NCBI GenBank assembly: GCA_951406725.2
Contig: OX597831.1
Coordinates: forward strand, 73,842,001 to 73,906,000
Length of the DNA stretch: 64,000 nt
Source of the DNA: Octopus vulgaris
Lineage: Eukaryota
Reading direction: 5' to 3'
Shown here: positions 14,761 through 62,890 of the stretch, one piece after another
Position numbering within the stretch: the stretch's first letter is position 1
How the letters are laid out: each line of letters opens with the position of its first letter
The notes under the pieces: model-generated
Database searches by the model: none
The model's input: only the letters and a program-made list of their open reading frames with translations
Told to the model about the DNA's origin: nothing
Position numbers and translations under genes: made by a program

Positions 14761-14940
14761 GGGAGAGTTTACGAAAAAAACAAAAGACGAAGACAGGTGG
14801 TGTATAAAACAAACAGATATATTAGTATAACGCTCAGGAATAGAAAAAAGTCTTTTACGTTTCGAGCCTACGCTCTTCTATAGAAAGGGACACAGAAAAA
14901 ACAAGGAGCGAAACAAGGAGAGAAAAAAGGAGAGAAAAAT
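14761..14940 (-). mobile_element. Short hammerhead-bearing repeat, family H1 (Penelope pLTR-like)
   Basis: Homologous to 23741-23950, 53455-53745 and 62661-62890. Hammerhead-like fold at 14851-14888 on the minus strand (core CTATAGA). Flanked by (TA)n. Confidence 0.8.
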
Positions 14941-14967
14941 ATGTATGTATATATATATATATATATA

Positions 14968-16590
14968 ATATTAAATTAGAGATAAAACCACTATTAGGCA
15001 AATCAAACAATGAAAAACTTAAGCCAATACATAAAATTAATTAATTTATATTATTTTAAATATATATCAAAAGTATTAAAAGTTTAATAAAAGATAATGA
15101 GTAAAACACTACGATCGTTTCATGGCTGTCCAATTCGTAATAATTCGAGTTATGGTTACAGTTAATCTTCAGGTAATTGAAATATCTAAAATATAATCAG
15201 AAATATTTAAGCAATATTTTTAAGATATAAATAATATAATAATTTTACTTAAAATAAACTCTATTATCAAACTAGAAACATAGAACTTAACATTTATGAT
15301 TATATCAAAATCGACTATAATGTTAAATATCAATTTTAATTTATAAGGTAGGAAACCCACCCATAATCTAATATCGGTATTAGTCTATATCTAATTACAT
15401 AAATATTTAAAAATGACTAATATATATAAATTATCAATGAAAATATATAAATGTATATAAATATTATAATTAAGATCTAAAATAATCTCTATAAATAAAT
15501 GTATATGCACATATAATAAAAACCTAATAAATTTAATTTTTCATATTTAAAGATGAAATAGCTAATTTCAAAATACAAATAAACAAACTTAAACGAACTT
15601 TCGGAAATGTTATGTAAAATACTTTTAGAAATAATCAATTCGTAGTAATATAGTATCGAATAAATACTATAAATATAATTATCAATGGGAATAACTAGCG
15701 AATATCAATTTAAAGAAATAACTAAGTTATGCTATTAAATTAGACATGGCCTGGACCAATCTTTAGTCGAAACATATCTAAGTTTATCAAAGTGTATCTA
15801 ATTTAATTATAAATTTAAAACTACAATTAATACTATTAAAACATGTATATACAAAAGCCTAACTTAATACACCTCGTATGCTTGCTATCAAATAACAAAT
15901 CTATCGCTAAGTAGTAACTTACGAATAAACTTAAATTTAATATCTAATAATATAGAAAATTACGATAATTAGATCATTACATAAACAACGATATTTACAT
16001 AAGGAGAATATTATTACTCCAAAGACTTATACAATATTAAAATTTACAATTTGAAGATCTTAAATAAATACATATTTATCTTAGCGAGGTTTAGCAATGA
16101 ACTAAAATTTTGAATCGGAAAACGTCTTTACAGCGTTTATAAGAATACTCGTGGAATTACGTTATTAGCAACAAAAAAAAAAGAATAAATTGTTGAAGAA
16201 TTTATTACGCGTGAGGAACCTACGTTTTATTAATGATTGTGAATGGGAAAATTATTTGTTTATCATTGTAAATAGAATGAAGTCACAAATAAAGAATAAA
16301 ATCTCTCTATACTATAATATTTATTAATAAAAAAATAACTATGATAAATGAAACTTTATACAAAATAAATTAAATGATTTAAATGATTAAAAACCACTAA
16401 TTATTAAATATATTCTAAAAATCTTATAAGGTTAATAAATATATAAAAAATTATTTATATAGTAACCCCTCAACATACTATAAAGTCTTTCCCATGCCTT
16501 TATAATTATAAGCTAAAATTAGTGATCATAACCAAATCTATAAATACTTATCAAAATTTGTAGTATAACTATACATACGTATACATAAAT
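14968..16590 (-). mobile_element. Extremely AT-rich element remnant with a hammerhead motif (probable Penelope-like derivative)
   Basis: About 1.6 kb of complex AT-rich DNA between TA-rich microsatellites, with a hammerhead motif near its left end. No readable ORF. Confidence 0.5.
15103..15177 (-). ncRNA. Type-I hammerhead ribozyme motif, canonical core
   Basis: Minus strand: attac CTGAAGA t-taactgt...acagcca-t GAAAC GATC GTA gtgtt. Canonical CUGANGA and GAAA, palindromic stem III, GUA site. Stems I and II are imperfect. Confidence 0.65.
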
Positions 16591-17927
16591 ATATAAAAAA
16601 TATACATACATATACATATATATATACATATATATATACATATATATATACATATATATATACATATATATATATATACATACATATACATATACATACA
16701 CATACACATATACACATACATACACACATACATACATATACATATATACAAACATATATACACACACATACACACATACACATATGCACACTCATACATA
16801 CATGTACATACATACAATACTCAATATATACACTTACACCTATATATACACACCCACACACATACACATAAATAAATGTATATACATATACATATATATA
16901 CACACACATCATCATATACACATATATACATACACACACAACCACATATATCATATAATAAATACATATATAAATGTCTATATATATATGTCTATATATA
17001 TATATATATATATATACATACACACACACAGATGCACATATATATATAGATTATAATTGAGGGTATCTAAGATACCACCATCTCTTAGAAACCCTCAATT
17101 ATAATTTTGATAATTATTACCAATAAAGTTTTTCTTCCCATGCTGACCACTTGATATGATGTCGTTATTTCAAAATATCGGTCTTATATATATATATATA
17201 TATATATATATATATATATATATAAGGATAAGACCGATATATGTTTGGAAAGCAAGCTTCGTACCAGGCAGCCATTCCTGCGCTTATACATACTACGATG
17301 CGCATCACTCATATGTATGTATTGAAAAAGTGGTTGTTCGTGCACATACATGTTCAGATACCTGTATCCATTCACACGAATGTTTCTCTGTGCGCGTGTT
17401 TATACCTGGGCGTGTGCAATACAGTTGTATTTTCCACCTGTATTTATATCCGGATAACGGATTGCGCCACGACAATACAAATGCGACTTTGAGATTCCTC
17501 ACAATATCTCTCCCGCACACGCTCTTCATTCTCTCACACACACACATTCTCTCTTTCTTTCCTTATCTCTGCTTGTCGTTCACACACACGCACACACACA
17601 CACACACTCACGCATACAGATACACAAACACACACGCATACACACACAAACACAAACACGCATACACATACACACACAAACACACACACACACGCACACA
17701 CACACAAACACAGACACGCATACACACACACACGCATACACACACACACGCACACACGCACACACACACACACACACACACGTGCAACCTTTTCTCCGTC
17801 ACTCCATCCCTCTGTTTCTATTCATTTTTGTCATGCTCGTATGTGCTTGTACCTTTCACAGGTGTTTTCAATACAGAGGACACTTTGGAGGCAGACAGAC
17901 AGACAGGCAAGCAGGTAGACAGAATGA

Positions 17928-18130
17928 CAGATAGATAGATAGATAGATAGATAGATAGATAGATAGATAGAGATAGATAGATAGATAGATAGATAGATAG
18001 ATAGATAGATAGATAGATAGATAGATAGATAGTTAGATAGATAGATAGATAGATAGATAGATAGATAGATAGATAGATAGATAGATAGATAGATAGAGAG
18101 ATAGATATATACATAGATAGATAGGTAGAT
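17928..18130. repeat. (GATA)n microsatellite
   Basis: Direct reading. Confidence 0.95.
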
Positions 18131-61024: not shown

Positions 61025-61192
61025 CTTGATTACATTGACCCTAATTTCTTCTGATACTCTATTTTATCGACCCTGAAAGGATGGATGGAAAAGTCGGCGT
61101 CGGTGGAATTCGAACACAGAACGTAAAGACGGACGAAATGCCGCTAAGCATTTTGCCCGGCGCCCTAACTATTCTTCCAGCTCCACCGCCTA
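61025..61192 (-). mobile_element. SINE family B, diverged
   Basis: ttttatcgaccctgaaaggatg...cgaaatgccgctaagcattttgcccggcg. Confidence 0.75.
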
Positions 61193-61303
61193 AGTGAGTA
61201 CAAATAGTAATAATATATCTATTTCTCTCTCTCTTGCTATATATATATATATATATATATACATACATACATACACACATACATACATACATACATACAT
61301 ATA

Positions 61304-62541
61304 CGAGGGGCGTTCAATAAGTAATGCCCCTGACCCACTTGCAGTTGTTTGATCTAGCTGAAATTTTGCATGTGCACTTATTTATACCTCTATAGATTAA
61401 GTGGAAAATTACAGCTCTGAACTAATTGTGGTTTCTGATTTACAGGTGTTTGAACTGAGTCAAGTGTGAAATGGAGCCTGTTGAGTGTCGAGCAGTGATC
61501 TGGTTTTTGTATTTGAAAGGACGCACACCACGGGAGACTTTTGATGAAATGAAAGTAACTTATGGTGATGATGCCCCATCATATGACCTTGTAAAACGCT
61601 GGCATTATGAATTCAAACATAGTCGGAACTCTGTGGAAACCGCTCCCAGATCTGGTCGCCCCCTTCTGCCGTTGATGAGACGTCTGTCCGTCAAGTTGAG
61701 GCTGCCATTTTGGAAGGTCAACGCATAACTATTCGCCAAATAGCCCATAAGGTCAAGATTAGTACCGGGTCTGTGGAAACTATCATTCATGACCATTTGC
61801 ATATGCAAAAGGTGTCTGCCAGAACCAAGAACGCGTTGAGTGCTCGAGGATGAATTTGGAGATGTGCCAAGAAGATGAGTCAAAATTTTTCAAAAGACTG
61901 ATCACACAGGATAAAACCTGGGTCCATCACTATGATCCATAGACCAAAGCCCAATCAATGCAGTGAAAGCACCGTGACTCACCTCCTCCAAAGAGGGCAA
62001 GGGTGCAACCCTCCGCTGACATGGTTATGCTCACAGTCTTCTGGGACCAGGACGGAGTAGTGATGACAGATTTCCTGGCAAAGGGTACCACAATTACAGG
62101 AGCCTATTATACTTCACTTTTGAGGAAATTAAGAGAAGCTATCAAAATCAAGAGGCGGGGCAAGATCAGCAAAGGCATCCTCCTCCTGCAGGACAACGCT
62201 CCGGTCCACAACTCGCGTGTCGCCAGATCAGAAGCACAGGCGTGCAGCTATGAACTCCTCCCCTTGCACCCTCTGATTTTCACCTCTTCCCAGCCATGAA
62301 GTTGATTTTGAAAGGAAAGCGTTTCCCAGATGATGCAGCCTTGATTTTTGAAGTCACGTCGTGGTTGGAGGACCAAGCTGGGGTCTTCTACAAAACGGTC
62401 TCCAGAGCTGTATCAAACGATGGGAGAAATGCATAACTCTGAATAGTTCCTATGTAGGAAAAGACTAATAACTGTGCCAAGTGTCGTTGCTCTACTGCTA
62501 TGGGAAGTGGGTCAGGGGCATTACTTATTGAACGCCCCTCG
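61304..62541 (+). mobile_element. Mariner, irritans-like, both ends intact, transposase pseudogene
   Basis: Perfect 37-bp TIRs (cgaggggcgttcaataagtaatgcccctgacccactt) and a TA TSD. Motifs PRSGRP, VMLTVFWD, LLLQDNAPVH and LAPSDFHLF are present with stops and frameshifts. Confidence 0.95.
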
Positions 62542-62660
62542 TATATATACCTATACACACACACATATATCTATCTATCTCTCTCTCTCTCTCTCTCTCT
62601 CTCTCTCTCTCTCTATATATATATATATATATATATATATATATATATATATATATATAT

Positions 62661-62890
62661 AACGGGAAAGTTTAAGAAAATAAACAAAAGACGAAGGCAG
62701 GTGGAGTACAAACAAACAAATGTATTAGTATGGCGCTCAGGAATAGAAATAGAACAAGTCTTTTACGTTTCGAGCCTACGCTCTTTGACAGAAAGAAACA
62801 CAGAAAAAAACCCAAAAAACAAAAAAAAAAACAAGGAGAGAAACAAGGAGAGAAAAAATGCGTGTAGGAACTAACGATCTATCATGGCGT
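62661..62890 (-). mobile_element. Hammerhead-bearing repeat, family H1
   Basis: Minus strand TCTTT CTGTCAA A GAGC GTAG GCTC GAAACGTA AAAGA at 62759-62796. Abuts (TA)n. Confidence 0.85.

Follow-up and report, generated by a model that had tools for sequence, protein, structure and literature searches.

What kind of ribozyme core, and what kind of mobile element, do four short repeats in a 64,000-nucleotide stretch of Octopus vulgaris DNA represent (assembly GCA_951406725.2, contig OX597831.1, positions 73,842,001 to 73,906,000 of the forward strand; hereafter the window, with coordinates counted from its first letter)? Each repeat carries a minimal hammerhead motif with U at core position 6, a site for which descriptors used to search for hammerheads demand an unvarying A. 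A preliminary description of the window had proposed a high-copy, non-coding retroelement with a non-canonical ribozyme core. We found that U6 is a trait of the family and not decay of single copies, and that the motif is almost certainly akin to the hammerheads of Penelope-like elements (PLEs). What sets the family apart is a position-6 substitution, fixed throughout its thousands of copies under four organism labels, the extra A of the core and the PLE architecture being already known.

The four copies, c1 (14761..14940, minus strand), c2 (23741..23949, plus), c3 (53358..53744, plus) and c4 (62661..62985, minus), were recovered at the places and on the strands first proposed, with pairwise blastn identities of 80–91% (E 1e-44 to 1e-77) and the motif in every copy; no fifth full copy was detected by blastn within the 64-kb window. 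The motif occupies 14851..14888 (minus) in c1 (C3 at 14883, U6 at 14880, N7 = A, predicted cut after 14856), 23814..23851 (plus) in c2 (C3 at 23819, U6 at 23822, U at position 15.2, predicted cut after 23846), 53518..53555 (plus) in c3, the best preserved (C3 at 53523, U6 at 53526, stem II at 53531-53542, and GUA at 53548-53550, as previously reported), and 62759..62796 (minus) in c4 (C3 at 62791, U6 at 62788, predicted cut after 62764). All four share the layout stem I-CU(G/A)UN(G/A)A-A-GAGC/GCUC-GAA-A(C/U)GU-A-stem I. The cores read CTATAGA, CTGTCGA, CTGTTGA and CTGTCAA in c1 to c4, so that position 6 is U throughout and the core CUGANGA is unmatched; apart from U6, the core is intact only in c2 and c3, with a private G5A in c1 and a private G8A in c4. 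Every copy has an extra A between A9 and 10.1, as well as a GAGC/GCUC stem II with G10.1-C11.1, the invariance of which leaves it no covariation support. The 3’ part, GAAA(C/T)GTA, offers an NUH site with no loop III and reads ACGU-A in three copies and AUGU-A in c2. The AAAGA following GUA pairs with the U-rich 5’ arm as stem I, which measures 5, 5, 4 and 3(+1) bp over the four copies and has a private mismatch in c2 at 23815.

A search of public sequencing runs gave 20 holders of the family among 24 runs, spanning 11 studies and four organism labels, one of them possibly the source of the window. One run per organism label (4 of the 20) was aligned on c2 at 80% likeness, yielding 9,473, 10,703, 4,940 and 2,721 contigs. 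With thousands of contigs in each run, the proposed high copy number was borne out, at thousands to tens of thousands. Position 6 (23822 in c2) showed no variant at or above 3% in any of the four runs, and the same was true of C3, U4, G5, G8, A9, the extra A, stem II, A13, A14, A15.1, G16.2, U16.1 and A17. U6 is therefore the family state, together with G5 and G8, and G5A in c1 and G8A in c4 are accordingly private decay. The genome-wide consensus, on which the preliminary description had staked its case, is thus not A6 in the contigs of the four runs, in a test that would miss a parent with A6 if it were rare (under 3% of depth) or divergent (under 80% likeness to c2).

Differences at or above 3% within the 38-nt motif were confined to five places, two of which are private changes of c2 (23815 and 23834), the other three being N7, G12 (G12A) and position 15.2. 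N7 changes from C to A at 3.5–6.8% of depth across the four runs and is C, U or A among the window copies. Position 15.2 is C in 62–73% and otherwise U, as in the c2 reference, and C15.2U keeps stem III pairable by G-U. In all four runs, loose ends were present before 23816 and behind 23854, with an agreement of only ~0.6, which suggests a sibling subfamily that shares mainly the hammerhead and diverges in both flanks. Within the window, c1 is unlike c2, c3 and c4 in both hammerhead flanks; it partly resembles the putative sibling subfamily. A fall in depth toward the 5’ side of c2 was set aside, since edge effects and changes private to c2 contribute to it, and no RNA runs with the family were listed in the run search, a result uninformative on expression.

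Comparison with published hammerheads placed the motif among those of metazoan PLEs, whose consensus it fits at every feature but position 6 (PMC4209133; published sources are cited throughout for the portions of them available to us). This consensus is U-rich, with CUGANGAH, G10.1-C11.1 and GAAAN-palindrome-NUH, and a nucleotide between 9 and 10.1 is one of its conserved traits. Shared with the window family are the type I topology, the U-rich 5’ flank, a stem I of 3-5 bp, the extra nucleotide at 9/10.1, a 4-bp stem II with a tetraloop, GAAAC-GU-H without loop III, and massive dispersal as solo motifs; the window family differs in U6 instead of A6, in H17 = A and in that no associated open reading frame (ORF) was found. 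The proposed PLE-type minimal architecture was thus supported. The extra A before stem II, present as described in all four copies, is no novelty; it is standard for PLE minimal hammerheads, and therefore only U6 is non-canonical. A6 is found in 56/56 PLE hammerheads of PMC4209133 Fig. S3, though the descriptor used there required A6, and in 34/34 rows listed in PMC8557442 File S2; exact strings of the window motif were not found in the available part of the latter supplement. The literature search yielded no account of the window family, nor of any A6U core occurring in nature, an earlier description not being thereby excluded, and the available portions of PMC6765202, PMC6155905, PMC13282606, PMC11014351 and PMC2704196 contained nothing on A6U.

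Relatives were sought using a relaxed pattern in which positions 6, 7 and loop II were free, and stem II and most core columns were fixed. The pattern matched 85 loci in metagenome contigs (L001-L085; 72 distinct), with no matches in prokaryote genomes or viral contigs; the exact window motif was absent from both viral and metagenome contigs. Position 6 was A at 84 of the 85 loci and C at one, with no U6. The C6 locus, L049, looks like a chance match. Most of the loci belong to one A6 family with stem I GCU/AGC, loop UAAC and flanks unrelated to those of the window family. It resembles the window family in the core except at position 6, in the extra A, in GAGC/GCUC and in C/U at 15.2; in contrast, its H17 is mostly C and it was not seen ending at (TA)n. 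The hammerhead of the A6 family is almost the same as the Acropora digitifera Neptune motif shown in PMC4209133 Fig. S3, and an inverted partner lies within 300 bp at 17/85 loci. At two loci the motif follows PLE-type ORF remnants, 214 bp downstream of them in L006 and 100 bp downstream in L043. The remnants are alike (77% over 74 aa); they contain CX5CxxC and match GIY-YIG weakly, at E = 0.0018, which falls short of the Pfam cut-off. By their sequence, the contigs of the A6 family are animal DNA. The inverted partners have GGGC in stem II where forward copies have GAGC (A-U versus G-U), and L021 represents a third family with a different flank.

Twelve sequences, the four window copies and 8 of the 85 loci picked by hand, were aligned. 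Stem I is UUU/AAA in the window family and GCU/AGC in the A6 family, with two of the three pairs changed on both sides in what counts as one inter-family event. These complementary changes identify the window motif as a variant of the PLE hammerhead rather than a chance look-alike. The contrary reading, in which the repeats are the 3’ end of an unrelated short or long interspersed nuclear element (SINE or LINE) and their hammerhead likeness is accidental, would account for the lack of any hammerhead among the 3 Rfam matches of c3 at E up to 10, for weak folding scores, for the lack of within-family covariation and for the missing parent ORF. Against this reading, a relaxed minimal-hammerhead descriptor (at most two core mismatches) found exactly four sites in the window, against 0.07 per shuffle over 30 block shuffles. 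In addition, over three families with unrelated flanks, the 27 alignment columns between C3 and U16.1 include 18 without any variation, although most of these were fixed by the search pattern, and the two arms of stem I match each other in both of the main families. We therefore consider an accidental likeness extremely improbable. Among the Rfam matches of the whole window, the 150 listed of 392 were microsatellite-driven miRNA models.

The anatomy of the copies gives insight into how they were inserted. All four have one common 3’ end, which abuts (TA)n in 4/4, while their 5’ ends differ (about 180 to over 380 bp). The preliminary description had all copies abutting (TA)n; this holds at the 3’ end, and at the 5’ end only for c1 and c2. 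Nor are they elements of ~200 bp: c1 is the shortest (~180 bp), c2 measures ~208 bp, c4 at least 325 bp, and c3 at least 385 bp, with a 5’ extension common to c4 and a 3’ end adjoining (TA)26. The lengths are unequal because the c3/c4 homology continues further 5’, to ~53358 and ~62985, adding ~100 bp, followed by CT-rich tracts. Such a low-complexity tract lies upstream of c3 (52766..53282, plus strand) and a similar one 5’ of c4 (62990-63080, minus strand); both are possibly part of a longer element. The hammerhead is sense-oriented; in c1, c2 and c4, a stretch of 95-103 nt separates the predicted cut site from the 3’ end, a position similar to that of the Hydra-clade PLE hammerheads in PMC8557442 File S2. 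In c3 a 31-bp terminal unit is repeated 3.9 times (53615..53736, plus strand, 95% matches), and similar back-jumps occur in contigs of runs X1 and X2. In size, this unit resembles the 30-40 bp tails of PLEs that target (TA)n (PMC8557442), which reflect two reverse transcription start sites (PMC11167929). The copies are solo, spaced 9-30 kb apart, and we infer from this anatomy the pattern of 5’-truncated retroposed copies, not a discrete 200-bp element. In all four copies, TACTAAT followed by a long pyrimidine-rich tract lies 3’ of the hammerhead (23881-23940 in c2). It resembles a spliceosomal branch point, with no splice site identified; PLE ends are known to hold introns.

Among known PLEs, those of the Hydra clade (such as Hydra-1_Obim) are like the window family in (TA)n targeting and in a sense hammerhead near the 3’ end, but have A6 and a stem III of 3-4 bp; Naiads also target (TA)n, yet thrive without canonical hammerheads (PMC8557442). 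Non-LTR retrozymes, which are PLE-related, non-coding animal repeats of small size that carry type I hammerheads (PMC7229834), offer another model, to which the preliminary description had likened the family. A 200-400 nt unit replicating via circular RNA would suit the size range, the low GC content and the type I motif, and solo monomers derived from pseudo-long terminal repeats (pLTRs) are dispersed in some genomes (bioRxiv 10.64898/2026.07.22.740005). However, retrozymes are PLE-derived tandem repeats (PMC7229834, bioRxiv 10.64898/2026.07.22.740005) that are expressed as circles and carry a canonical type I motif with loop 1-loop 2 contacts (PMC7229834), whereas the window copies are solo, with no tandem monomers in the window, minimal in motif, and ragged at 5’, ending ~100 nt past the cut site instead of running from cut to cut. 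One contig of run X3 joins 23928 back to 23763, and this is the single head-to-tail joint over the whole unit listed in four runs. The retrozyme analogy accordingly did not stand, and we regard replication of this kind as very unlikely.

The family was instead very probably mobilised in the manner of a PLE. In the model that we propose, a PLE reverse transcriptase/GIY-YIG endonuclease, Neptune-like by the nearest hammerhead, would nick (TA)n. Reverse transcription would then be primed ~100 nt downstream of the hammerhead and end prematurely, so that solo ends differing in 5’ length remain, and re-priming would produce the repeated 31-bp tail. A6U may have arisen in a master copy from which the sampled subfamilies descend. 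Because its stem III is not stable, the motif would fold only together with another copy, as a dimer through the ACGU palindrome, and U6 would lower the cleavage rate further. The family may have spread despite U6 because cleavage would not be required for insertion. Taken together, this model presents c1 to c4 as 5’-truncated 3’ ends of a PLE or of a non-coding PLE derivative, with a hammerhead predicted to cleave slowly, a combined reading to which we give an even chance.

Several observations weigh against this PLE reading with a slow hammerhead or otherwise qualify it. None of the 137 non-repetitive ORFs of the window matched reverse transcriptase core or GIY-YIG families in Pfam, the matches above cut-off being mariner remnants and one zf-RVT LINE end. 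A tblastn search of the window with the PLE remnants gave a best E of 0.22 and no parent ORF, and with the same queries the 5’ extensions of c3 and c4 held nothing recognisably coding. The absence of a PLE ORF from the window is expected, since the copies are truncated. A tandem or inverted pLTR partner accompanies none of the four copies, a weak point because most genomic PLE hammerheads are solo (PMC4209133). Folding z-scores of the four 38-mers are only -0.1 to -1.6, and the drawn fold is the minimum free energy (MFE) structure of c1 alone. G12A occurs at 1.9–5.6% of depth in the four runs. Polymorphic sites number 1/38 in the motif and 11/117 in the flanks, a contrast that is not significant (Fisher p = 0.16; p = 0.10 for the downstream flank alone), so that selective retention of the hammerhead is not demonstrated. 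Stem covariation, a support that the preliminary description had looked to, was not seen within the family, nor were compensatory changes. Finally, the slow rate predicted for A6U is an extrapolation from mutants of other kinds at position 6 and elsewhere in the core.

Those mutants nonetheless allow a qualified prediction. The hammerhead of phage Bcep176 has a natural A6C and is slow in Mg2+, at <0.1 per min, but reaches ~0.3 per min in Mn2+ (PMC3088659, PMC7151607); it parallels the window family in its position-6 substitution, but the base is C, not U, and it is a single phage locus with measured activity, whereas the window family comprises thousands of retroelement copies. In another hammerhead, single mutants of the CUGA region are low in activity (PMC9901934). 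By analogy, the literature predicts reduced activity for position-6 changes. PLE monomers do not cleave, and dimers cleave weakly (PMC4209133). To activity of the U6 hammerhead that is slow but non-zero we give an even chance.

Alternatively, A6U may have abolished cleavage in the founder of a family of PLE origin, and be fixed only via founder expansion, with the motif either a passive passenger or retained because it binds a protein or serves in folding. The prevalence of A6 in the two published sets and in 84/85 pattern matches would fit such a relic, as would the weak stem I (4 A-U, 1 G-C) and the non-significant contrast between motif and flanks. Cleavage also appears dispensable elsewhere: the anole PLE continues to insert in vitro when its hammerhead has been inactivated by mutation (PMC11167929), and Naiads do well without canonical hammerheads. 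On the other hand, the common changes in the motif are limited to position 7, which is free to vary (A in place of C; U in c3), and to C15.2U (27–38%), the loose ends suggest a sibling subfamily diverging on both sides of 23816-23854, which is roughly the hammerhead itself, and the natural A6C retains activity. We consider a catalytically dead relic unlikely, yet the most serious of the alternatives.

At the other extreme, U6 combined with the extra A (A9a), dimerisation, Mn2+ or a protein cofactor could form a new core that works at ordinary PLE rates under selection. U6 is fixed while N7 varies between C, U and A, A6C variants are fast again once Mn2+ is supplied (0.18-0.31 per min, PMC7151607), and PLE hammerheads already include the core covariant U3-A8 (PMC4209133), all of which would be compatible with such a core. 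Against these stand the outcome of pairwise mutagenesis in another hammerhead, where no rescue was seen in the CUGA region except by a C3-G8 swap (PMC9901934), the lack of a compensatory change elsewhere in the core, and the lack of other U6 families in the metagenome, prokaryote and viral pattern searches. A fully active new core is thus a distinctly unlikely explanation.

Two further ideas on U6 were tried and rejected. Locking of the monomer in an inactive rod, by pairing of U4-G5-U6 with A-C-G, was discarded, since the rod depends on N7; an A6 version with C7 folds an equally good rod, and L006 of the A6 family is held in the rod more tightly than the window family (open-core probability 0.000 versus 0.007-0.115). 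In every case, the double-hammerhead fold lies 7-17 kcal/mol above the dimer MFE, and folding therefore does not discriminate. A-to-I editing was rejected as a source of U6 by reasoning, as it cannot yield U6.

The role of the hammerhead in PLEs is an open question (PMC8557442, PMC11167929), and a massively amplified U6 family is a natural experiment on it. Should U6 prove dead or slow, an element of PLE type would have reached high copy number without efficient self-cleavage, which would favour dispensable cleavage. Should it prove active, both the core consensus and the surveys of genomes that rely on it would have to be broadened. Catalytic competence of the natural A6U core, as a dimer, in Mn2+ or with an element protein, is possible but doubtful; such a core would have been missed by CUGANGA-based surveys, which would imply that PLE families regarded as hammerhead-less may carry non-consensus ribozymes.

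The remainder of the window is repeat-rich animal DNA. A 292-bp near-perfect palindrome (23330-23621, 98% self-inverted) beside (TA)n resembles a miniature inverted-repeat transposable element and has a partial relative at 29515-29677. About 100 bp beyond the 5’ side of c4 lies a 611-bp palindromic element (63082-63692, 80% self-inverted, TA at both ends), an end piece of which recurs at 60156-60224. A SINE-like family of ~400 bp with an internal microsatellite has at least 10 copies (2852-3245, 54333-54748, 51797-52207, 9921-10300, 37046-37285, 7758-8002, 4113-4301, 47440-47667, 57489-57680 and 36543-36671). The mariner transposase remnants are broken (58633-59628 and 61459-62296; Pfam HTH_48, Transposase_1), the zf-RVT LINE end lies at 39181-39948, and 5111-6898 is a hAT/ZBED-like remnant by eye, with no Pfam match. 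Local duplications, direct (188 bp, 95%) and inverted (92 bp, 95%), are found at 35547-36375.

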